This document shows, piece after piece, positions 40,610 to 51,223 of a DNA stretch of 64,000 bases (its first letter is position 1; each line of letters starts with the position of its first letter). The notes under the pieces are model-generated. The model had not been told where the DNA came from. It made no database searches and saw only the letters and a program-made list of their open reading frames with translations. A program made the translations under genes and the position numbers. The stretch spans positions 25,173-89,172 of the forward strand of contig CAKSZH010000011.1 in the NCBI GenBank assembly GCA_934525675.1, written 5' to 3'. This DNA comes from an uncultured Eubacteriales bacterium (GTDB lineage: Bacteria > Bacillota > Clostridia > Oscillospirales > CAG-272).

Positions 40610-40755
40610 TCCGCCCGGATGGGAAACTTCCCGGAGCGAGCGGAGACATGACACTGCGTTTTTTCCGGAACGGAAAGAAGCTGACATCAAGTCTCATCCG
40701 GGGCGGCACATAGCGGTATCGCGTCCGCGGCTCCGGAACAATCGGATACAAACCA

Positions 40756-40782
40756 ATCCCCGCCGTCAGGCGGGGATTTTTT
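40756..40782. terminator. Terminator between the convergent MATE and hydrogenase genes
   Basis: atccccgcc-gtca-ggcggggat followed by tttttt. Confidence 0.7.
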
Positions 40783-40858: not shown

Positions 40859-42304
40859 TCAGTTGTGCTTGAGAATCCCGATTGCATCGGAAATGCGCTT
40901 CTCGTGCGCGAGCTTTCCGTATTCGTCTACTTCGGCACGGTTCTTCTCTCCGTGCGTCAGGCATCCGGCACCGCCGATACAACCGCCGACGCACGCCATG
41001 CCTTCAATGAAGTTGGCATCCAGCACGCCCTTGGAAAGCCGGAGCAGTGCCATGCGGCATTCCTCAATGCCGTCGCAGGAGACCGGCTTGTAGTCAAATT
41101 CCGTGTCCCCGTGTTCGGCAATCCCTTCGCGTACCGCGTCGGCAAGTCCGCCGCTGCGTGCAAAGATCCGCCCGAAATAGGACGCATTGTCAAGCGAGTT
41201 TTCTTCAAGCGACATAATGTCAATGTCCCGGCTGTCAAAGAGCGCCTGCAATTCCTCGAAGGTGATCACGCTGTCCACGTAAGGGCGCACCTCCGGCTTC
41301 TGAAACTCCATTTTCTTTGCGGTGCAGGGACCGATGAAAACGACACGTGCCTTGTCGTCGGAGGATTTGATGTATTTTGCGATCGCAGCCATCGGAGAGA
41401 GCGTTCCGGAAACCAGATCGGCAAGCGCGGGGAACTGCTTCTTGACATATGCCACGAACGCAGGACAACAGGAGCTGGTCAGCTTACCCTTCTTCACCAG
41501 CTCGCGGGATTCCTCATCCGCAACCATATCCGCGCCGAGCGCCGCTTCCACAACGGTGTGGAACCCGAGCGCCTTGATGCCGGATACTACCTGACCAAGC
41601 TTTGCATAAGTGAACTGACTGGAGATGGACGGCGCGACCACCGCGTATACGCGGGTCCCGGCGGCAGGACTTTTCTTGAGAAGGTCAATGACGTTGAGGA
41701 TGTACGATTTGTCCGAAATGGCACCAAACGGGCACTGGTAAACACAGGCGCCGCAGGAAATGCACTTTTCGTTGTCGATGGATGCGGCGCTGTCGGCGTT
41801 GACCGAGATCGCCTTGACCTTACAGGAGCTGACGCAGGGACGCTTGAAATTCATGATCGCGCTGTACGGACAGACCTTGGCGCACGCGCCGCACTCCACG
41901 CATTTGGTTTTGTCGATGTGGGCGACGTGGTTTTCGTCGAGCGTGATCGCTCCGCGGCGGCAGACATCCTCACAGCGGTGTGCAAGACAGCCGCGGCAGG
42001 CGTTGGTCACCTCGTAGCCGCCCATCGGGCATTCGTCGCAGGCGATGTCGATGACCTCGATGACATTGGGGTTTTCCTTGTTTCCGCCCATGGCGAGCTT
42101 GACGCGCTCTCCGAGAATCGCACGCTCCTTGTAGACACAGCAACGCATGGTCGGCACCTTGCCGGGGGCAATGATCTTGGGAATGTCCGTCACCTTTTCA
42201 AGCAGCGTTCCGTTCCAGGTGCATCTTGCAACCTCGCGGAGCACCTTGTATTTGAGATGCTGGACTTTGGTATCGAATTTTCTCAGCTTCGGGGTATCCT
42301 GCAT
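40859..42304 (-). CDS. [FeFe]-hydrogenase with canonical H-cluster motifs and N-terminal multi-[4Fe-4S] region
   Basis: L1 TSSCCPAF, L2 GPCTAKKME, L3 EGMACVGGCIGG. Ferredoxin motifs CVECGACAKVCP and CISCGACVYQCP. Confidence 0.85.
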   Translation of the reverse strand: MQDTPKLRKFDTKVQHLKYKVLREVARCTWNGTLLEKVTDIPKIIAPGKVPTMRCCVYKERAILGERVKLAMGGNKENPNVIEVIDIACDECPMGGYEVTNACRGCLAHRCEDVCRRGAITLDENHVAHIDKTKCVECGACAKVCPYSAIMNFKRPCVSSCKVKAISVNADSAASIDNEKCISCGACVYQCPFGAISDKSYILNVIDLLKKSPAAGTRVYAVVAPSISSQFTYAKLGQVVSGIKALGFHTVVEAALGADMVADEESRELVKKGKLTSSCCPAFVAYVKKQFPALADLVSGTLSPMAAIAKYIKSSDDKARVVFIGPCTAKKMEFQKPEVRPYVDSVITFEELQALFDSRDIDIMSLEENSLDNASYFGRIFARSGGLADAVREGIAEHGDTEFDYKPVSCDGIEECRMALLRLSKGVLDANFIEGMACVGGCIGGAGCLTHGEKNRAEVDEYGKLAHEKRISDAIGILKHN

Positions 42305-42313
42305 ATTGACTCC

Positions 42314-43495
42314 TTAAAAATAACTGACCTTGACGCGCTTTCCCATTTTGGTAAGGCAATCGGAAAGCTCGGTGACAAGCTGCATTTTGATGTTGAAATT
42401 GATGGGCAGATCGGGGTTCTGGTGCGCCGGGTTGATGGCTCTGCCCACGAAGAAATTGATGTCGGTCGCTTCCTCAAAGAGAAGCCGCGCGATCATGGAC
42501 GCGCCGTCCCGCTTGAAGCTCCATTGCTCGTAGCTCTTGTTGTCGGCGAGGTAATCCTTGGCGTACTCCAGGACGCGGTTGATTGTGATGACGCCCTCCG
42601 TGACCAGATCGACGCCCTCCAGCGTCGCGGTCGGCGGGATGCCCTTGTCCTCGAAATCAAGGCTCGGAATGAGCGGCTTGTTCAGGTACTTTGCGGCAAT
42701 GGACGAGGTGGTTCCGCCGCAGACGATGTGCTTGCCTTCCTTGGAAAAGAACAGTGCCATCATCTTGTTGCAATCGTCGCGGTGGGAGGGCGGACCGAAG
42801 AGAATGTTCATCGGCTCTCTCTTGCGGATCCGCACCATGCACGCGGTCGCGTCGTCGCCGGGGTGTTTGCCGTAGAGCTTGTTTACCTCGTCGATGAAGA
42901 TGGTGGACAGCGTTTTGGCGGTGTACCCGACCCCTTCAAAGGTGCCGAGAAATTCGATGATGTCCTCTCTCTTCCAGCCGAAATTGTAGGTCACGCCGAT
43001 TCCCGCGTGGGGACAGCCGTCGCTCATCAGCACAAAGAGATCATTTTCCCGGAGCGGGAGGACGGATTTGTAGATCTTTTTTCCGCCGATGCTGATCTCG
43101 GTCCTCGGATAATCGTAATTTGCGCCGTCCCGGAACAGAATGACCTGCGGATTGTCGTACTGCATCAGCTCCGCCTCGGTACTGTCGGGGGAAATGTGCA
43201 GAACGGTGAAGGTCGAATAGGCAACTCCGCGTACCGAACAGACCGGGAGCGTAGCCGCGATGGTGGATACGCAGTCCTCCAGCGCCAGCCCCTCCGCCAT
43301 CATGGTGGAGATGATCTTGGCGGTCAGGGTGGACAGGATGCTTGCCTTGACCCCGCTTCCGAGCCCGTCGGCAAGCACGACGACGGTGGAGCCGTCCTCC
43401 GCCGCTGCCACGTCGATGTGATCCCCGCAGAGCACCTCGCCGTCGTGGTTGATGCTCTTGTAGCCGATGTCGGCGCAGAAGTTATTCATCATCAT
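42314..43495 (-). CDS. PP2C/SpoIIE-family serine phosphatase
   Basis: GDHIDV...VVVLADGLGSGVKASI... Overlaps the hydS stop by 14 nt. 9 nt before the downstream hydrogenase start. Confidence 0.85.
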   Translation of the reverse strand: MMMNNFCADIGYKSINHDGEVLCGDHIDVAAAEDGSTVVVLADGLGSGVKASILSTLTAKIISTMMAEGLALEDCVSTIAATLPVCSVRGVAYSTFTVLHISPDSTEAELMQYDNPQVILFRDGANYDYPRTEISIGGKKIYKSVLPLRENDLFVLMSDGCPHAGIGVTYNFGWKREDIIEFLGTFEGVGYTAKTLSTIFIDEVNKLYGKHPGDDATACMVRIRKREPMNILFGPPSHRDDCNKMMALFFSKEGKHIVCGGTTSSIAAKYLNKPLIPSLDFEDKGIPPTATLEGVDLVTEGVITINRVLEYAKDYLADNKSYEQWSFKRDGASMIARLLFEEATDINFFVGRAINPAHQNPDLPINFNIKMQLVTELSDCLTKMGKRVKVSYF

Positions 43496-45179
43496 TGGTG
43501 GACTCCTTGAGCTTGGTCAGGGCGATCTTGGTCTCCGCGGCGGTTTCGCCGAGCAGGGATGCGATCTCCTGTACGATGCGCATCTGCTTTTCCACCACGC
43601 GGTCAGCGGTCTCCACCGTCTGGCGGCGGAGATTCTCCTTCTTTTCGCGCGCCTCCTGCTCGTCGGTCACGTCGCGGAGCGTGCAGAGCAACGTGTGATC
43701 GTCGCGGCTGCGCGTGATGGTCATGACCACGTAGCGTCCGTATTCCGCAAGATAGGTGCGGCGGTCGAAAATGCCGCGCCCGGTGTTCTCCACCTGCACG
43801 AAATCCTTGGGGTCAAGGATGCGGTTGACCGGCTCGCCGAGCACATCGGATGCCGAGCGGAGGTTGAGGATTTTGCGCGCGGCAAGGTTGATCTGCTGGA
43901 CCTCCAGGTCACCGTTGATGACGAGAATACCGTCTGGACTGTTATTCAGAATGTTGTCCGAAAAGCTCTCGGCACGGCGGGTCAGATACGGCATACACAT
44001 GGACGGATCGGCTTTCCCGCGGAATACCGCAATTGCCTTTTCCCGGCAGGTGTCGTAGCCGCAGGAGCCGCAGTTGAGCTCGTCCTCGGGGCGGCTCTTG
44101 CCCATTTTGAGAAGGATTTGCTTCAGCTCCTCCTCGGTTGGGAGCGTTTCGGAACGATACAGATCCGTCATGGGCTTGCGGAGCGCAGAGGGGAAGGGCT
44201 GCTCCACGGGGAAATCCTCCTCTCCCGTATAACGGCTGACCGCAATGTACTCCTCTACCGGCTTGCGGTGATATTTTTCCATCACAGGTCCGCCGACACA
44301 GCTTCCGTAGCAGGCGGACAGCTCGATCATGCAGTGGTGCACCTTTCCGCTTATCACGTCGCGGAGTACCGCAATGCAGTTCTCGGTGCCGTCCACGGCA
44401 AGATAGGTATAGTCGCTCAGCCGCTCGGTCAGTGAGCGCAGAACGCCGCCAGTCGTCGGAAAGCTGCGTGCTCTGCCGGTCCTCTCCCGCTTTTCGGGTG
44501 CGCCGTCTGCGGGGGACTCCGGGAGCGCAATGTGTTCTGCCTCCAGCCACCTGGACAATTGCTCAAAGGTCAGCACTGCGTCCACAAGGTCGCCGCAGGT
44601 TGCTGCTTCATCCTTTTTCGCAACGCAGGGACCGATGAACACGGTCTTCGCGCCGGGAATCCGCTCCTTGATGTCGCGGCAGTGTGCCTGCATCGGGGAG
44701 AGCACGTCCGCAAGGTAGGGAAGTGCTTCCGGGAAATGCTTTTCGATGAGCAGATTGACCGCGTGACAGCAGGAAGTCAGCAGAATGTCGCGGTGTTCCT
44801 CGCGGAGGATGCGCTCGTATTCCCGTTTGACAAAGGTAGCGCCGACGGCGGTCTCCTCCACGCCGGCAAAGCCGAGCTTTGTGAGTGCCCCGCGCATGGC
44901 TTCAATGGTCAGCCCGTTGTAGTTGGCAACAAAGGACGGCGCAAGGCTGACATATACCGGATCCCCGGACTGAATCAGCACACGCACCTTTTCGGTCTCG
45001 TCCCCGATCTGCTTTGCCCCTTGCGGGCAGACCACGAAGCACTGTCCGCAGAGGATACAGTCCTCGGGGACGATGTGCGCCTGGTTGCCGGAAAACCGGA
45101 TCGACTTGACGGGGCAGTGGCGGATGCATTTATAACAATTCTTGCAGTTGGATTTCTTGAGGCTGAGACATTCAGTCAT
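43482..45179 (-). CDS. hydS: Sensory-type [FeFe]-hydrogenase homolog with C-terminal 4-Cys motif and PAS domain
   Basis: N-terminal CKNCYKCIRHCP/CILCGQCFVVCP. Degenerate H-cluster motifs TSCCHA, GPCVAKKDE, ELSACYGSCVGG. CGSCGYDTC then a PAS-like region (NSPDGILVINGDLEVQQINLAARKIL). ATG at 45179 preferred; the track start at 45209 is TTG. Confidence 0.85.
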   Translation of the reverse strand: MTECLSLKKSNCKNCYKCIRHCPVKSIRFSGNQAHIVPEDCILCGQCFVVCPQGAKQIGDETEKVRVLIQSGDPVYVSLAPSFVANYNGLTIEAMRGALTKLGFAGVEETAVGATFVKREYERILREEHRDILLTSCCHAVNLLIEKHFPEALPYLADVLSPMQAHCRDIKERIPGAKTVFIGPCVAKKDEAATCGDLVDAVLTFEQLSRWLEAEHIALPESPADGAPEKRERTGRARSFPTTGGVLRSLTERLSDYTYLAVDGTENCIAVLRDVISGKVHHCMIELSACYGSCVGGPVMEKYHRKPVEEYIAVSRYTGEEDFPVEQPFPSALRKPMTDLYRSETLPTEEELKQILLKMGKSRPEDELNCGSCGYDTCREKAIAVFRGKADPSMCMPYLTRRAESFSDNILNNSPDGILVINGDLEVQQINLAARKILNLRSASDVLGEPVNRILDPKDFVQVENTGRGIFDRRTYLAEYGRYVVMTITRSRDDHTLLCTLRDVTDEQEAREKKENLRRQTVETADRVVEKQMRIVQEIASLLGETAAETKIALTKLKESTNDDE

Positions 45180-45441
45180 AAGTACTCTCCCCCCGGAGTT
45201 TTTCAACAATATGTGCCCGGAAAAATTCCCGGAAGTTTTCCGGCGTGATGCCGGTCACGATTTCACCATCCACACGGAGGTTGACACCGTTCCGGTTACA
45301 GGCACCGAGGCACAGGCAGCCGATGAGGTCCACCTCGTCGGTCAGTCCTTCCTTGTCCAGTGCCTCGCGGAACAGCCGGATGATCTCCTCGGAGCCTTTG
45401 ATATAACAGGAGCTTCCGACACAAATCTCCACCTGAATCAT
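45172..45441 (-). CDS. Thioredoxin-like [2Fe-2S] ferredoxin-domain protein
   Basis: VCVGSSCYIKGS...CLCLGACNRNG four-Cys pattern. Tandem paralog of 45438..45689. Confidence 0.7.
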   Translation of the reverse strand: MIQVEICVGSSCYIKGSEEIIRLFREALDKEGLTDEVDLIGCLCLGACNRNGVNLRVDGEIVTGITPENFREFFRAHIVEKLRGESTYD

Positions 45442-45689
45442 ACGCCGGCATCCAGCTTTCCGAGGATTTCTTTGGTAAAGAAGTCGTCCACCGTATCCGG
45501 CGAGACGGAATAGGTTTCACCGTCCACCGTGACGTTGACGCCGGTCCGGCATTGTCCCATACAGAAGGTTCCGGCAAGCTCCACGCGATCCTTGAGATGG
45601 TTTTCTGAGATCAGGTAACGAAGGGTCTCCACGATCTGGCGGGAGCCCTTGAGGTGGCAGGAACTGCCGATGCATACCGTAATTTTCAT
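45438..45689 (-). CDS. Thioredoxin-like [2Fe-2S] ferredoxin-domain protein
   Basis: VCIGSSCHLKGS...FCMGQCRTG four-Cys pattern. ATGA overlap with the next gene. Confidence 0.7.
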   Translation of the reverse strand: MKITVCIGSSCHLKGSRQIVETLRYLISENHLKDRVELAGTFCMGQCRTGVNVTVDGETYSVSPDTVDDFFTKEILGKLDAGV

Positions 45690-45833
45690 GGTGTTTTCCT
45701 TTCATGTTGCGTTTTATGCGGTCTGACCGGGACGTTTTTGCGGCATGGAGACGGAAAACCCGGCACCTGATTTTCTGTATTGCGCAGGGAGAACCCCGTA
45801 CCTCCCGGCGCGGGGTTCTTGAAAGAACTTGGA

Positions 45834-46583
45834 TTATTCGTAATCGACGACATTGACCCAGGAGAGCAAGAACTGTCTTTCCTCGGGCTTGCCCTTGACG
45901 GACTGGGAAGCCGCAACGATCGGCATCCAGCTCTGGACGTACTTTTTGGCGGTTCCGCTCTTTTTGCAGAAGAGTTCGAGGTAAGCATTCGCGCCCTCCA
46001 TATCGCCGGAGAGCCAGAAGAGCAGGTAGGTACGCGCGACATCTGCCGAGGCGTTGCCCTGTGTGGCGTGCGACCAGTCGAGGATGTAGGACGTGCCGTC
46101 CGGCGTGATGATGATATTGGACGGATTGAAGTCCCCGTGGCAGAGCTTGTTGTGGCGCGGCATGGATTCCAGCCGCGTGTGCAGGTCGTACCGCGTGGTC
46201 GCATCGAGGTCTGCCTCGCAGATCTTGCGATCCATCTTGTCCTTGAGCTTTTTCAGATCGGGAGCGGTCTTTTTGTGCATCTCCATCTGAAGGTCCACAA
46301 ACAGTTCCAGATACTCCGCTTTCTTGTCGGGATTCTCCTGCATGAGCTGTGCGAGCGTCTTGCCGGGAATGTACTCGGACGTGATCGCCCACTTGCCGTC
46401 GGGTTTGGAAACCTCCAGCACCTTGGGAATGTGCAGCCCGGTCTCCTCGACCAACGCCTGATTGAGTGCCTCGTTGAGGATTCCCGCCTTGGAGTAATCC
46501 TCGTCAAACACCTTGATGACGCGGTCGCCGTCCAGATAAACGGTCTTGGAGGTCCGCACCGCAAGGATCTTGTCTGCTTCCAT
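45834..46583 (-). CDS. Aminoglycoside-phosphotransferase (APH)/choline-kinase-fold protein kinase-like protein
   Basis: Catalytic loop LCHGDFNPSNIII and DWSHA. ATG at 46583 preceded by AAGGAGGAG, only 20 nt after the adhE stop. Confidence 0.75.
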   Translation of the reverse strand: MEADKILAVRTSKTVYLDGDRVIKVFDEDYSKAGILNEALNQALVEETGLHIPKVLEVSKPDGKWAITSEYIPGKTLAQLMQENPDKKAEYLELFVDLQMEMHKKTAPDLKKLKDKMDRKICEADLDATTRYDLHTRLESMPRHNKLCHGDFNPSNIIITPDGTSYILDWSHATQGNASADVARTYLLFWLSGDMEGANAYLELFCKKSGTAKKYVQSWMPIVAASQSVKGKPEERQFLLSWVNVVDYE

Positions 46584-46603: not shown

Positions 46604-49231
46604 TCATACGTTCTTGTGTTCGCCGGTATAGGCGTTCAGATACATCTGTTTAATTTCGGAAATGAGCGGGTAACGCGGGTTTGCCCCGGTGCACTGGTCA
46701 TCGAATGCCTGCTCGCTCATAGCGTCCAGACGCGCCATGAAGTCGGCTTCGTCGGGGACGTAATCGCGGATGGTCGGCTTGATGCCGATGCGCGCCTTGA
46801 GCTCGTCGATCTTTGCAATGAGACCTTCCAGCTTTTCTTCGTCGGTCTTGCCCTTGACGCCGAGTGCCGTAGCGATCTCTGCGTAACGTGCAAGCGTGTG
46901 CGGATGATCGTACTGCGAGAAGGTGCCCATCTTGGTGGGAGCCTCTGCGGAGTTGAAGCGGAGCACCTCATCCATCATGAGAGCATTGGCAATGCCGTGC
47001 GGGATGTGGTGGAATGCGCCGAGCTTGTGCGCCATGGAGTGCATGACGCCGAGGAACGCGTTTGCGAATGCCATACCTGCCATGGTAGCGGCGTTTGCCA
47101 TCTTTTCTCTTGCCACGGGGTCGGGCGTACCGGTGACGGCGCTGTCGTATGCACGGGGCAGGTATTCAAAGATGACCTGCAGCGCACGGATCGCAAGTCC
47201 GTCGGTGTAGTCGGTCGCCATGACCGAAGCGTATGCTTCGAGCGCGTGGGAAACGGCATCGATGCCGGAAGCGGAGGTCAGTCCCTTCGGCGCGTTCATC
47301 ATCATGTCCGCGTCAACGATTGCCATATCGGGCATCAGCTCGTAGTCGGCAAGCGGGTACTTGATGCCGGTCTTCTCGTCGGTGATGACGGCGAACGGCG
47401 TGACCTCGGAGCCGGTGCCGGCAGAAGTCGGGACGGCGATGAAGTATGCCTTCTCTCCCATGTGCGGGAAGGTGTAGACTCTCTTGCGGATGTCGATGAA
47501 GCGCATTGCCATATCCGCAAAATCCGCTTCGGGATGCTCATAAAGCACCCACATGATCTTTGCCGCGTCCATTGCGGAGCCGCCGCCGACGGCAATAATG
47601 ACGTCGGGAGCGAAGGCGGTCATCTGACGTGCGCCCTCTCTTGCGCAGGCAAGTGTCGGGTCGGGGGCAACGTCGGAGAAGGTGGTGTGCAGGATTCCCA
47701 TGGAATCGAGCTTTTCCTCCACCACACGGGTGTAGCCGTTCTGATACAGGAAGGAGTCGGTGACGATGAACGCCTTTTTCTTGTGCATGACGGTGCCGAG
47801 CTCGTCGAGCGCGACGGGCAGACAGCCCTTCTTCTGATACACCTTTTCGGGTGCGCGGAACCAAAGCATATTTTCTCTCCTTTCGGCAACCGTCTTGATA
47901 TTGAGCAGGTGCTTGACACCGACGTTTTCGGAAACGCTGTTACCGCCCCAGCTTCCGCAACCGAGCGTCAGGGAAGGGGTCATCTTGAAGTTGTACAGGT
48001 CGCCGATGCCGCCGTGCGAGGAGGGCGTGTTGACGAGAATGCGGCAGGTCTTCATGCGTTCCGCGAACTCATCGAGGATGGGCTTCGCGGTCACGGGGTT
48101 GAGGTAAATGGAAGAGGTGTGTCCGTAGCCGCCGTCGGCGATCAGATGCTCTGCCTTACCGAATGCGTCCTGAATATCTTTTGCGTGGTACATTGCAAGC
48201 ACCGGGGACAGCTTTTCATGCGCGAATTCCTCGGTGATTTCCACGCTTTCGACTTCGCCGATCAGGATCTTTGCGGTTTCGGGAACCGTCACGCCTGCAA
48301 GCGCGGCGATCTTGTGCGCGGGCTGACCGACGATCTTTGCGTTGAGCGAACCGTTGATGAGAATGGTCTTGCGGACCTTCTCGGTTTCCTCGGGGGAGAG
48401 GAAGTAACAGCCGCGGTAGGAAAATTCCTTCTTGACCGCCTTGTAAATGCTGTCGAGCACGATCACCGATTGCTCGGAGGCACAGATCATGCCGTTGTCA
48501 AAGGTCTTGGAGTGGATGATGGAGTTGACGGCGAGCGTGATGTCTGCGCTCTCGTCGATGATGGCGGGCGTGTTGCCTGCGCCGACACCGAGAGCGGGCT
48601 TGCCGCTGGAGTATGCCGCCTTGACCATGCCGGGACCGCCGGTCGCTAAAATGATGTCCGCTTCCTTCATCAGCGTGTTGGTCATATCCAGGGACGGAAC
48701 GTCGATCCAGCCGATGATTCCCTCGGGTGCGCCTGCCTTGACTGCGGCTTCGAGTACCACTTTTGCCGCTTCAATGGTGGATTTCTTTGCGCGGGGGTGA
48801 GGGCTGATGATGATGGCGTTGCGCGTCTTGAGCGCGATCAGCGTCTTGAAGATGGCGGTAGAGGTCGGGTTGGTCGTCGGGATGACCGCGGCAATGACGC
48901 CGATCGGCTCTGCGACCTTTTCCTCGCCGTAAATGGGGTCTTTTTCGATGACTCCGCAGGTCTTGGTGTTCTTATATGCATTGTAAATATATTCGGAAGC
49001 GTAGTTATTTTTGATGACCTTGTCTTCCACAACGCCCATTCCGGTCTCTTCCACCGCGAGCTTTGCGAGCGGGAGACGCGCCTGGTTTGCGGCGATTGCC
49101 GCCGCCTTGAAGATAGCATCTACCTGTTCCTGAGTGTAGTGCGCGTATATCTCCTCCGCCGCGCGGGTACGCGCAAGCAGAGCTTCCAGCGTTTCGGGGC
49201 TGTCGGTGATGGGATACTTCTGATTCTCCAT
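46604..49231 (-). CDS. adhE: Bifunctional acetaldehyde-CoA/alcohol dehydrogenase
   Basis: N-terminal ALDH domain plus C-terminal Fe-ADH domain (GGGSAMDAAKIMW, HSMAHKLG). ATG at 49231 has a GGAGGA RBS; the track start is 49246. Confidence 0.93.
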   Translation of the reverse strand: MENQKYPITDSPETLEALLARTRAAEEIYAHYTQEQVDAIFKAAAIAANQARLPLAKLAVEETGMGVVEDKVIKNNYASEYIYNAYKNTKTCGVIEKDPIYGEEKVAEPIGVIAAVIPTTNPTSTAIFKTLIALKTRNAIIISPHPRAKKSTIEAAKVVLEAAVKAGAPEGIIGWIDVPSLDMTNTLMKEADIILATGGPGMVKAAYSSGKPALGVGAGNTPAIIDESADITLAVNSIIHSKTFDNGMICASEQSVIVLDSIYKAVKKEFSYRGCYFLSPEETEKVRKTILINGSLNAKIVGQPAHKIAALAGVTVPETAKILIGEVESVEITEEFAHEKLSPVLAMYHAKDIQDAFGKAEHLIADGGYGHTSSIYLNPVTAKPILDEFAERMKTCRILVNTPSSHGGIGDLYNFKMTPSLTLGCGSWGGNSVSENVGVKHLLNIKTVAERRENMLWFRAPEKVYQKKGCLPVALDELGTVMHKKKAFIVTDSFLYQNGYTRVVEEKLDSMGILHTTFSDVAPDPTLACAREGARQMTAFAPDVIIAVGGGSAMDAAKIMWVLYEHPEADFADMAMRFIDIRKRVYTFPHMGEKAYFIAVPTSAGTGSEVTPFAVITDEKTGIKYPLADYELMPDMAIVDADMMMNAPKGLTSASGIDAVSHALEAYASVMATDYTDGLAIRALQVIFEYLPRAYDSAVTGTPDPVAREKMANAATMAGMAFANAFLGVMHSMAHKLGAFHHIPHGIANALMMDEVLRFNSAEAPTKMGTFSQYDHPHTLARYAEIATALGVKGKTDEEKLEGLIAKIDELKARIGIKPTIRDYVPDEADFMARLDAMSEQAFDDQCTGANPRYPLISEIKQMYLNAYTGEHKNV

Positions 49232-49273
49232 GATTCGTTCCTCCATGTCTGTTGGGTCTATTGGCTTGTTATA

Positions 49274-49302
49274 ATTTTAACACACTTCCCGCACGAACAC
49301 AA
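49274..49302 (-). promoter_or_regulatory. Candidate adhE promoter
   Basis: Minus strand: TTGTGT (49297-49302), 17-nt spacer, TGtTAAAAT (49274-49279). Confidence 0.55.
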
Positions 49303-49547: not shown

Positions 49548-50477
49548 TCAGCCGCCGAGTACCTCGCGCTTGTATGCGGTCAGGCTGTCGATAAATTGGC
49601 AGTCGAGGTCGGTCAGGCGGTAATTTTTACGGTAAATCAGTACGTCGCGGTAGACCTTGTGGTCGTCTTCGCAGGGACGTGTGACCAGATGGTGCTGTTC
49701 CAGAATTCTTTTCGGAATCGGGGAGACCCACATAAACGCGTCGGGCAATTGTTCGAGCAGACCGAACTGACTTCCACGTTCAAATACGAAAATGTGTTTG
49801 TCCACGTATTCCGAAAGCTCGCTCTTGCGCGCCTCGCTTTGCGGCAGATTCGGTACAAACGGGTCACCGTGTGCGATCTCCGTCATGCCGGCAAGTTCCT
49901 CCGAGCGGAAGGATTTCTTTCCCGAAAGCGGGTTCTTTTCCGACATCAGCGCCACGTGCGAAAACTCACAGATCAGTTCGGATGCAAGCCCCTTTTCCGC
50001 AAGCATTGCCTTGAAATAACGGTCGTAGGCGGATTGATAGCGGATGATGCCGATCCGGTAACCGGCTTCCACAATGTTGTTGATGGCGCGCAGGGAATTG
50101 GTTTCCCGATAGAGCAGCTCCATGCGCTCGCTGCCGGATACCGATTTCACGAAATCCGTGAACGCACAGGAAATATAGGTCGCGCGCGGCACCGATGCGG
50201 AAAACAGCTGGGTGTTGGCGCGTTCGCCCTTGTACATCCGTTCCATGGCGTCCACCTGGGAGAGAATGGAGCGGGCATATCCGAGAAATTCCTCGCCTTC
50301 CTCGGTCGGGACGATTCCCTTGGAGGTACGCTTGAAGATCTTGATTCCCAGTTCTTCTTCCAGATCCTTGATGGCGCGGCTGAGGTTGGGTTGACCCATA
50401 TAGAGCGCCTCGGCGGCTTTGGTGATGGAAGTGGTTTTTGCAACCTCCACCGCATACTTCAGGTATAACAGATTCAT
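49548..50477 (-). CDS. LysR-family transcriptional regulator
   Basis: N-terminal HTH MNLLYLKYAVEVAKTTSITKAAEALYMGQPNLSRAIKDLEEELG. 309 aa. Confidence 0.85.
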   Translation of the reverse strand: MNLLYLKYAVEVAKTTSITKAAEALYMGQPNLSRAIKDLEEELGIKIFKRTSKGIVPTEEGEEFLGYARSILSQVDAMERMYKGERANTQLFSASVPRATYISCAFTDFVKSVSGSERMELLYRETNSLRAINNIVEAGYRIGIIRYQSAYDRYFKAMLAEKGLASELICEFSHVALMSEKNPLSGKKSFRSEELAGMTEIAHGDPFVPNLPQSEARKSELSEYVDKHIFVFERGSQFGLLEQLPDAFMWVSPIPKRILEQHHLVTRPCEDDHKVYRDVLIYRKNYRLTDLDCQFIDSLTAYKREVLGG

Positions 50478-50605: not shown

Positions 50606-51223
50606 TCAGCGGACGTATTTGGACAGGATTGCGAGAGAGGATGCGAGGTTCTCGTTTTCCACGGCGACCCCGTCGGGGACCCGCAGAATGACGGGCGCAA
50701 AGTTCCAGATTGCCCGGATGCCGCATCCGGCAAGGCGGTCGGCAATGGGCTGTGCCGCGGGGGCGGGAACAGTCAGAATGGCAAGGCGGATGTTCTCCTC
50801 CCGGCAGAAGTTCTCCAGCTGTTCCATGGCAAGCACGGGTTTGTCGGCGAAGCGTTTGCCGACAAGCTCCGGCGAGAAATCAAACGCGGCGCAGATGTCG
50901 AAGCCGTAGTCGAGGAAACCGCCGTAGCAGAGCAGTGCCTGACCGAGATGCCCGGCACCGATCAGCACCGTTTTGGTCATGCGGTCACAGCCGAGACAGG
51001 CTTCGATCTGGGGGATCAGTTCTTCGATGACATAGCCGGTTTTGGGTCTGCCGCTTCCGCTGACCGCCCCGAGGTCCTTCCGGACCTGGACATCGCCGAG
51101 TCCGAATACTTTCGCAAGCGTTGTGGCGGAAATGGTTTCCTGCTCTTCGCGGATTGTGCGCAGGTAGTGCAGGTAGATCGGCAGTCGCCTCAGCGTTTTC
51201 GGTGAAATATTCGCGTTTCCCAT
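50606..51223 (-). CDS. rex: Redox-sensing transcriptional repressor Rex
   Basis: ISPKTLRRLPIYLHYL winged helix, Rossmann motif VLIGAGHLGQAL, 205 aa. Confidence 0.9.
   Translation of the reverse strand: MGNANISPKTLRRLPIYLHYLRTIREEQETISATTLAKVFGLGDVQVRKDLGAVSGSGRPKTGYVIEELIPQIEACLGCDRMTKTVLIGAGHLGQALLCYGGFLDYGFDICAAFDFSPELVGKRFADKPVLAMEQLENFCREENIRLAILTVPAPAAQPIADRLAGCGIRAIWNFAPVILRVPDGVAVENENLASSLAILSKYVR

Follow-up and report, generated by a model that had tools for sequence, protein, structure and literature searches.

What is phosphorylated by a kinase whose gene lies between adhE, which encodes the bifunctional ethanol-forming enzyme, and the genes of a putative H2-sensing hydrogenase system? 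The question is raised by a locus on contig CAKSZH010000011.1 of an uncultured Eubacteriales bacterium, from which we analyzed a stretch of 64,000 nucleotides (nt), referred to here as the window. Its minus strand carries nine genes between 51223 and 40859: rex, a LysR regulator gene, adhE and six more. A preliminary description, made from the DNA letters, had read the genes behind adhE as an H2- or redox-responsive kinase/phosphatase switch. Our comparison of gene orders showed that the cluster consists, as far as homology can tell, of two separable modules joined together, an adhE-kinase pair and a hydrogenase module of the hfs type. The adhE-kinase pair was shown in the same way to span Oscillospirales, Lachnospiraceae and Coriobacteriia. 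This association across phyla is the new point, and the searchable literature yielded no mention of it: a query on APH kinases linked to adhE brought up unrelated resistance-gene papers only, one on sensory hydrogenases together with phosphorylation and AdhE gave no mechanistic result, and one combining HydS, kinase and phosphatase gave no result at all.

The adhE gene and the six genes behind it are, in order of transcription:

46604 to 49246, minus strand: adhE, bifunctional acetaldehyde-CoA/alcohol dehydrogenase, 880 amino acids (aa); NCBIfam NF010378, 1368 bits against a cut-off of 951.
45834 to 46583, minus strand: stand-alone kinase of the APH/choline-kinase fold, 249 aa, here the "AdhE-linked kinase"; Pfam APH (PF01636), 55 bits against a cut-off of 23.
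45438 to 45689, minus strand: thioredoxin-like [2Fe-2S] protein 1 (trx1), 83 aa; Pfam 2Fe-2S_thioredx, 32.8 bits; cysteines C6, C11, C43 and C47.
45172 to 45441, minus strand: thioredoxin-like [2Fe-2S] protein 2 (trx2), 89 aa; Pfam 2Fe-2S_thioredx, 29.9 bits; ATGA overlap with trx1.
43482 to 45179, minus strand: HydS/HfsB-type sensory [FeFe]-hydrogenase with two [4Fe-4S] clusters, H-domain, Cys4 "FeS" motif, PAS domain and C-terminal helix.
42314 to 43495, minus strand: HfsC-type SpoIIE/PP2C protein phosphatase; Pfam SpoIIE, 60.7 bits against a cut-off of 25; the phosphatase is formed by residues 1−225.
40859 to 42304, minus strand: HydA2/HfsD-type monomeric group B [FeFe]-hydrogenase (hydB), 481 aa; two Fer4 domains and Fe_hyd_lg_C, 205 bits.

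Domain calls were made with Pfam and NCBIfam at curated cut-offs, and every assignment lies above its cut-off. All six genes that the preliminary description had placed behind adhE are present, each with the domain given to it there, and the motifs quoted for both hydrogenases and the kinase were found. The domain searches it had proposed for PAS, SpoIIE and APH all scored above the Pfam cut-offs.

The separation into two modules emerges from 181 loci, collected by two collection scans (centered on the window kinase and on a Collinsella homologue) and individual look-ups, and searched by tblastn with nine window proteins. The arrangement is far beyond chance and recurs in dozens of genomes. 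The adjacency of kinase and adhE, which the preliminary description had suggested examining in relatives, is conserved: of 169 informative loci, 157 have adhE as the gene directly upstream of the kinase, and so do 13 of the 15 lineages of at least 40% identity. The linkage of kinase, phosphatase and hydS, on which that description also depended, is kept in 66 of 84 window-like loci and does not extend far beyond them, with hfs genes downstream of the kinase in 77 of 164 loci and only 4 of the 15 lineages.

The window-like lineage (kinases of 68−98% identity) is made up of metagenome-assembled genomes (MAGs) of Oscillospirales/Acutalibacteraceae together with Ruminococcus albus. Besides the 66 loci with adhE, kinase and hfs, which include R. 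albus and two near-identical contigs, its 84 loci contain 11 with adhE and kinase only and 2 with kinase and hfs only. A contig from a Hadza gut metagenome (L003) is 98−100% identical to the window. In the Collinsella lineage (46−50% identity), adhE and kinase are paired in all 34 loci and hfs is found in none of the 34. A lineage of 52−56% identity, including Mediterraneibacter and Faecalicatena isolates, has the pair in 26 of 30 loci and hfs in 0 of 30, and another of 47−49% has the adhE-kinase pair only (7/7), as do several singleton lineages. Outside the window-like lineage, hfs follows the kinase only in L091 (55%, with adhE) and in L093 (49%) and L097 (44%), both without adhE; in the latter two lineages, the genes of the kinase-hfs operons are spaced by 15−35 nt. 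One MAG (MGBC108918; L015, L067) carries two adhE-kinase pairs, whose kinases are 72% and whose AdhEs are 86% identical, with hfs behind one of them only. Distant APH homologues below about 38% identity were rejected as family members because their contexts are unrelated, so that about 40% identity marks the limit of the adhE-linked family.

The pair is also found in other regulatory settings. In the Mediterraneibacter isolates L180 and L181, a LacI-family regulator gene (7765−8745) begins 8 nt past the kinase stop codon, and the genes upstream of adhE include those of a histidine kinase and an AraC-type response regulator. No HfsC-like PP2C was found in the Collinsella records of PLSDB, a collection that may not hold the whole genome.

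The same arrangement is found on plasmid pRUMAL01 of R. albus 7 (RUMAL_RS17345−17385, by tblastn of plasmid records), and the homology of the encoded proteins shows the window cluster to be its orthologue. The 3' part is shown, by domain content, to be an hfs-type module of group C3 HydS, SpoIIE-type PP2C and group B hydrogenase. In R. albus, an eight-gene cluster in this locus falls 111-fold when a hydrogenotroph keeps H2 low, and the organism switches between ethanol with ferredoxin-dependent H2 formation at high H2 and acetate with H2 formation by a bifurcating hydrogenase (Greening et al. 2019, PMC6776011). A sensing model for R. albus was proposed by Zheng et al. (2014, J Bacteriol), according to the descriptions given in PMC5707799 and PMC10838669. 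In Thermoanaerobacterium, loss of hfsB leads to higher adhE expression, higher alcohol and aldehyde dehydrogenase activity and a higher ethanol yield, for which hfsC and hfsD are required (PMC5707799, PMC11837493). The idea of an H2-sensing phospho-switch is already published in outline, unproven, and the window holds a further copy with no new component. The parts recognized in the preliminary description, namely two hydrogenases, one of them sensory and with a PAS domain, a PP2C and an APH-fold kinase, coupled to adhE, rex and lysR, are all there, but they do not make up a new system.

How well is the sensory character of HydS supported? Its start at 45179 is backed by homologue N-termini, and it matches Pfam Fe_hyd_lg_C (162 bits), PF04060 "FeS" at the CGSCGYDTC motif (E = 1e-10) and PAS (E = 4e-7), all above cut-off. 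Aligned with CpI-type hydrogenases, it keeps the H-cluster cysteine ligands, including both L1 cysteines, and has the Pro after CC replaced by His, M353 by Gly, M497 by Ser and E279 by Arg. The pattern holds in the window and 63 relatives (64 sequences), with GPC, E[LM]SAC.GSC and Arg, Lys or Asn in place of E279. In sensory enzymes, the proton-pathway residues E279, E282 and S319 differ, and only about 17% keep the Cys at C299 (PMC10055695); HydS retains this Cys, which is unusual for its kind. The protein reaches the cut-off of no NCBIfam model for catalytic hydrogenases, with group A scores lower than those of the 481-aa enzyme. It did not fall into catalytic group A with an intact proton pathway, as its scores are below the group A cut-offs and E279 is lost, and both alignment and Pfam agree with the degenerate H-cluster motifs (Ser for Met), the extra CGSCGYDTC and the PAS-like domain noted at the outset.

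Three features of group C were found: substituted second-sphere Met residues, an altered proton pathway and a C-terminal PAS domain behind a Cys4 motif. The gene context is that of group C3, with hydS overlapping the SpoIIE gene by 11−14 nt and a 9-nt gap from there to the group B gene. Judged by its residues and gene neighbors, HydS is shown to be a phosphatase-linked (C3) sensory hydrogenase of group C. Upstream of it, trx1 and trx2 each carry Cx4C...Cx3C cysteines; several related loci have one [2Fe-2S] copy, and trx2 is missing in some relatives.

The second hydrogenase had been described as catalytic-type with canonical motifs. A second [FeFe]-hydrogenase is confirmed and the quoted motifs are present, but its L1 motif is SSCCPAF rather than TSCCP, its L2 motif is GPC, with Gly at CpI M353, and its class is that of NCBIfam TIGR04105 (FeFe_hydrog_B1; 568 bits against a cut-off of 450; protein 10−451 on model 1−461). 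It fails the group A models TIGR02512 (171 against 406 bits), NF040762 (120 against 900) and NF040763 (151 against 765). All of 56 relatives have TSSCCP and GPCT[AS]KK, and at least 51 of them also have EGMAC..GC as their L3 motif; the other five were not read at L3, where the search matched a ferredoxin-type Cys motif first. By its model matches, the enzyme is of group B, not group A, and presumably ferredoxin-dependent. In Vallitalea, hydrogenase genes placed by HydDB in "group C3" and "group B" are separated by one gene, which fits the window layout (PMC6163223). R. albus HydA2 was labelled "group A1" by Greening et al. 2019 (PMC6776011); its window orthologue, 74% identical, passes the B1 model and fails the group A models.

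Between the two hydrogenases, Pfam SpoIIE and the predicted fold support the SpoIIE/PP2C phosphatase of the preliminary description. In the AlphaFold2 model (predicted local distance difference test score, pLDDT, 77), residues 1−225 match SpoIIE, the RsbU domain of Rv1364c and RsbX; Foldseek gave E = 2e-14 against the SpoIIE structure 5mqh, and the full-length fold search gave PP2C matches only. The metal-binding residues D25, D43-G44, D159-G160 and D214-D215 are invariant. Residues from about 224/228 to 393 (window 42314−42826) form a well-predicted alpha/beta C-terminal domain of about 170 aa with many invariant residues (CGGTTS, VDLVTEGVIT, EEATDIN(F), NPAHQNPDLPINF). This domain matched no Pfam family and had no significant PDB sequence match, the borderline hits being 3k6q (E = 0.025) and a SIS-type isomerase (E = 0.18). 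No STAS, GHKL/HATPase_c kinase or sigma factor, the other components of partner-switching modules, is encoded within about 10 kb in the Pfam list of contig L003, in line with the missing STAS/anti-sigma-antagonist gene noted earlier.

In Acetoanaerobium noterae (L182, L006), genes for a HydS-like protein (34%) and a full-length HfsC-like PP2C (37%) lie about 880 kb apart on one replicon, and neither adjoins a kinase, adhE or a group B hydrogenase gene. The C-terminal domain is kept even in this unlinked, 37%-identical PP2C.

The kinase itself starts at 46583, as backed by an AAGGAGG ribosome-binding site and homologue N-termini. Residues K24, E38, H149-G150-D151, N156 and D169 are invariant in close homologues, as are HGDFNPSN and LDW. 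Its AlphaFold2 model (pLDDT 82) has a bilobal fold that matches APH(3'), APH(4) and LicA. Pfam APH and the structural neighbors bear out that it is an APH/choline-kinase-fold and not a Hanks-type enzyme: there is no Pfam Pkinase match and no protein kinase among the top 50 structural neighbors, although short catalytic-loop matches to StkP and MAPK occur at E of 1e-3 or weaker. The protein also falls short of TIGR02172 (55.8 bits against a cut-off of 228), the name that one source gives to a homologue. Clustered at 50% identity, the family (E below 1e-30) numbers 324 clusters. No gene fusion occurs among the 150 best representatives listed, which are stand-alone proteins; those of full length have nearly all about 250 aa, and the longest has 311 aa.

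What, then, might the two modules do together? Everything past HydS as a sensor-type hydrogenase beside a PP2C is interpretation. On balance, we lean towards an H2-responsive switch of HydS, PP2C and kinase, in which the kinase acts on AdhE or an AdhE-bound factor. H2 would first reduce the poorly catalytic H-cluster of HydS, and electrons would be buffered by the accessory clusters of HydS and the two thioredoxin-like [2Fe-2S] proteins. The PAS domain and the C-terminal helix would then relay the state of HydS to the translationally coupled PP2C, which would set the phosphorylation state of a target phosphorylated by the kinase. This target would most likely be AdhE itself or an AdhE-bound factor, and H2 control of ethanol flux would be post-translational in addition to transcription under Rex/LysR.

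AdhE is the best candidate target because adhE is the only constant genomic partner of the kinase. A functional link of the kinase to the hfs module appears plausible from gene order, since two lineages without adhE keep the kinase heading the hfs operon. The published physiology leaves room for post-translational control. We put forward with much less confidence, as an unlikely but specific proposal from gene neighborhood, that this APH-fold protein of 250 aa, whose gene comes directly behind adhE in Oscillospirales, Lachnospiraceae (Mediterraneibacter, Faecalicatena) and Coriobacteriia (Collinsella), has AdhE as its dedicated target and is a post-translational regulator of this ethanol-forming spirosome enzyme; in hfs species, a HydS-controlled PP2C would remove the phosphate, so that H2 partial pressure would set AdhE activity directly.

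Several observations weigh against the switch, and a number of them feed its main rival, that the APH-fold protein is a small-molecule kinase, for a metabolite, a cofactor or an adduct of AdhE chemistry, with no PP2C partner, while HydS-PP2C acts on the phosphoprotein of another kinase encoded elsewhere. As the kinase is not of the Hanks type, protein phosphorylation by it is an assumption. The top 50 PDB neighbors of its model are all aminoglycoside, capreomycin or choline kinases (APH(3'), APH(4), capreomycin phosphotransferase, LicA) plus YtaA, at 12−19% identity; the best PDB sequence match is the choline kinase LicA, and a weak NCBIfam match is to thiamine kinase. Most adhE-kinase pairs have no PP2C nearby, among them those of Collinsella and Mediterraneibacter isolates, which have neither hydrogenase nor PP2C nearby. 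Conversely, the hfs module of Monoglobus has no kinase, and the same holds for Thermoanaerobacterium according to the literature (PMC5707799, PMC11837493). Such pairs without PP2C and hfs modules without kinase indicate that kinase and PP2C need not each other.

Further points against the switch lie in individual loci and in the sample. In the kinase-hfs lineage L093−L095, which has no adhE, the catalytic loop of the kinase (P0247) reads HGNF for HGDF, with Asn for Asp, and this protein may be a pseudokinase. In the window, 144 nt with a hairpin separate the kinase gene from trx1, and a transcript shared with hfs is putative. The locus samples are biased to two queries and are no unbiased census, and lineage counts mean more than locus counts.

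Against a small-molecule substrate stand the kinase-hfs operons without adhE, with their spacing of 15−35 nt, and the acetyl-CoA to ethanol route, which has no small molecule obviously in need of phosphorylation. The kinase also partly matches two protein-kinase/ATPase families, Bud32 and RIO1 (for the latter 27.8 bits, with the cut-off at 22), and some APH-fold proteins, such as YihE/SrkA, are protein kinases. We regard the small-molecule kinase as rather unlikely, and keep it as the main rival. The kinase/PP2C switch of the preliminary description stands to the extent that kinase and hfs stay together without adhE in two lineages; the pairing of the two enzymes is putative, the constant neighbor is adhE, and the nearest solved structures are small-molecule kinases and one spore-coat kinase-like protein.

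Could the H2 signal instead run through transcription alone? The regulatory features upstream of adhE are:

50606 to 51223, minus strand: rex, redox-sensing (NADH/NAD+) transcriptional repressor; NCBIfam NF003994, 239 bits against a cut-off of 130; Pfam Put_DNA-bind_N and CoA_binding.
49548 to 50477, minus strand: LysR-family transcriptional regulator; Pfam HTH_1, 70 bits.
49266 to 49283, no strand assigned: inverted repeat TTGTTATAATTTTAACAC that resembles a Rex operator, 20 nt upstream of the start codon of adhE; a consensus match only.

Both regulators had been named in the preliminary description, and Pfam and NCBIfam agree. The repeat TTGTTATAATTTTAACAC has 2 mismatches to TTGTTAANNNNTTAACAA, and 2 such sites occur in the 64-kb window against 0.76 expected. 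The Rex consensus TTGTGAANNNNTTCACAA gave no meaningful site; only the clostridial variant picked out the site upstream of adhE. Among 53 informative window-like relatives, lysR and rex both lie upstream of adhE in 19, lysR alone in another 19 and rex alone in 8, and 7 have neither gene there, which amounts to lysR in 38 and to one or both in 46 of the 53. The window and a near-identical contig have rex first, then lysR and adhE; R. albus and 19 relatives have lysR, rex, adhE. The two regulator genes are the least conserved neighbors of the cluster, and for this reason a transcription-only switch is less favored. In such a switch, HydS would act via kinase and PP2C on a DNA-binding regulator (LysR, Rex or another) and turn the operon on at high H2, with AdhE and HydA2 as outputs. 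In its favor are the transcripts of R. albus, which change 111-fold with H2 status (PMC6776011), the 2−3-fold rise of adhE mRNA in Thermoanaerobacterium hfsA/B mutants (PMC5707799), the regulators upstream of adhE in those 46 relatives and the Rex-box-like site, as a consensus match, ahead of adhE. In hfs mutants, however, changes in activity are larger than changes in expression (PMC5707799). Neither rex nor lysR is adjacent to the adhE-kinase pairs of Collinsella and Mediterraneibacter, and the regulators of the window-like relatives vary in presence and order. To our knowledge, neither LysR nor Rex is known to be under Ser/Thr phosphorylation control. We consider this explanation quite improbable.

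That no sensing takes place at all, and that a single catalytic hydrogenase is assembled from HydS, the [2Fe-2S] proteins and the group B enzyme as its subunits, with PP2C and kinase accessory or incidental (the original view of Hfs as the main H2-evolving enzyme), is hard to credit: removing the entire hfs operon does lower hydrogenase activity and H2 production in Thermoanaerobacterium (PMC5707799, PMC11837493), the genes are tightly and translationally coupled, and HydS keeps all H-cluster ligands and the C299-equivalent Cys, but deletion of hfsB alone raises hydrogenase activity (PMC5707799), hfsD alone in an hfsABCD-deletion strain gives the high-ethanol phenotype of the hfsB deletion, so that HfsD works without the other Hfs proteins (PMC11837493), and HydS, with its sensory-type substitutions and PAS domain, scores below all catalytic NCBIfam cut-offs.

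The layout of the cluster is tight with one exception. From adhE on, a gap of 20 nt is followed by one of 144 nt, then by a 4-nt ATGA overlap, an 8-nt ATGACTGA overlap and an overlap of 11−14 nt, and the last of the six junctions is a gap of 9 nt. Of the very tight spacing described before, the 20-nt and 9-nt gaps and the 14-nt overlap (here 11−14 nt) hold, while the 144-nt gap between kinase and trx1 had been omitted; of its two ATGA overlaps, one is a true ATGA and the other is the 8-nt ATGACTGA. Two hairpins were located:

45790 to 45819, minus strand: GC-rich hairpin (GAACCCCG...CGGGGTTC) within the 144 nt between kinase and trx1, not followed by a T-run.
40755 to 40778, no strand assigned: GC-rich hairpin of 10 bp in the space where the hydB and MatE genes converge, from a terminator scan.

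The kinase/trx1 spacer (45690−45833) folds at −42.8 kcal/mol (z = −1.95), and its 144 nt compare with a median of 24 nt (range 13−331) in 67 relatives. It may contain an internal processing site, an attenuator or a promoter that most relatives lack. The hairpin at 40755−40778 is likely a bidirectional terminator that closes the cluster. A promoter scan across the cluster gave nothing above chance except one site upstream of rex, and Rfam and tRNA scans gave no match in or near it.

Further afield, an NfnAB-like gene pair (35277−36131 and 36133−37551, plus strand), encoding DHOD electron-transfer-type and GltD-like subunits, lies 3.3 kb from hydB. In Thermoanaerobacterium, a high ethanol yield needs nfnAB together with hfsD (PMC11837493). 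As a conserved link to the cluster, nfnAB was rejected, being near the kinase in only 4 of the 181 loci (L003, L016, L027, L066). Likewise, Tsac_0415, an adhE neighbor induced in hfs mutants, was rejected as a kinase homologue: it is transcribed opposite to adhE, is found in Thermoanaerobacterium only, and its function is not known. The window as a whole has a G+C content of about 58%; positions 1−4000 have 0.49−0.50 against about 0.58−0.61, with strong GC skew, and a tRNA-Ser(GCT) lies at 434−523 on the minus strand.

The balance of H2 and ethanol in gut and rumen fermenters bears on methane emission, gas in gut disease and biofuel yields. HydS/hfs leads the candidates for an H2-sensing system in Clostridia, and the question of its signaling output has stood since 2009−2014. 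The synteny of adhE and kinase makes the question of the phospho-target concrete, with AdhE as a candidate kinase substrate, and many culturable gut bacteria without the hydrogenase module have the kinase gene linked to adhE. Should the kinase act on a small molecule, this would point to unrecognized chemistry tied to AdhE.

Among known systems, the R. albus pRUMAL01 cluster is the closest. It shares all nine genes on one strand, encoding LysR, Rex, AdhE, a phosphotransferase (named "Ser/Thr kinase"), two [2Fe-2S] proteins, HydS, SpoIIE phosphatase and HydA2, and its order from adhE to hydA2 is identical to that of the window. Identities are 76% for AdhE, 68% for the kinase, 66% for trx1, 47% for trx2, 63% for HydS, 73% for PP2C and 74% for HydA2. 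It differs in that lysR precedes rex and in its kinase/trx1 spacer of 17 nt, compared with 144 nt and a hairpin in the window, whose host is an uncultured Oscillospirales-type bacterium of the human gut. The hfsABCD genes of Thermoanaerobacterium saccharolyticum and T. thermosaccharolyticum have the same core of HfsB (PAS-bearing hydrogenase), HfsC (Ser phosphatase) and HfsD (ferredoxin-linked hydrogenase) and are tied genetically to adhE expression, alcohol dehydrogenase activity and ethanol yield (PMC5707799, PMC11837493). By the published descriptions, they are four in number, with no kinase gene among them, and do not adjoin adhE (PMC5707799, PMC11837493). HfsA is described as aligning poorly with known proteins, whereas the window has two thioredoxin-like [2Fe-2S] proteins.

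Single components have their own counterparts. The characterized sensory [FeFe]-hydrogenase HydS of Thermotoga maritima (TmHydS) has Gly at M353, Ser at M497, Ala at the C299 position and a PAS domain (PMC10055695). Cluster ligands, Gly/Ser substitutions, altered proton pathway and PAS domain are common to both proteins; in contrast to TmHydS, HydS of the window has Cys at C299 and its gene is coupled to that of a PP2C. With the SpoIIE-SpoIIAA-SpoIIAB and RsbU-RsbV-RsbW modules, the window shares the SpoIIE-family phosphatase domain, which gave the best structural matches. Unlike these partner-switching systems, it has an APH-fold kinase next door and a PP2C with a unique 170-aa C-terminal domain. 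Finally, the window kinase resembles the APH/choline-kinase family (APH(3'), APH(4), LicA and Bacillus subtilis YtaA/CotI) in its fold, the Brenner motif HGDxxxxN and the metal-binding Asp. Unlike the members of that family, to which it is 12−19% identical, it belongs to its own group of stand-alone proteins of about 250 aa with adhE as conserved neighbor.

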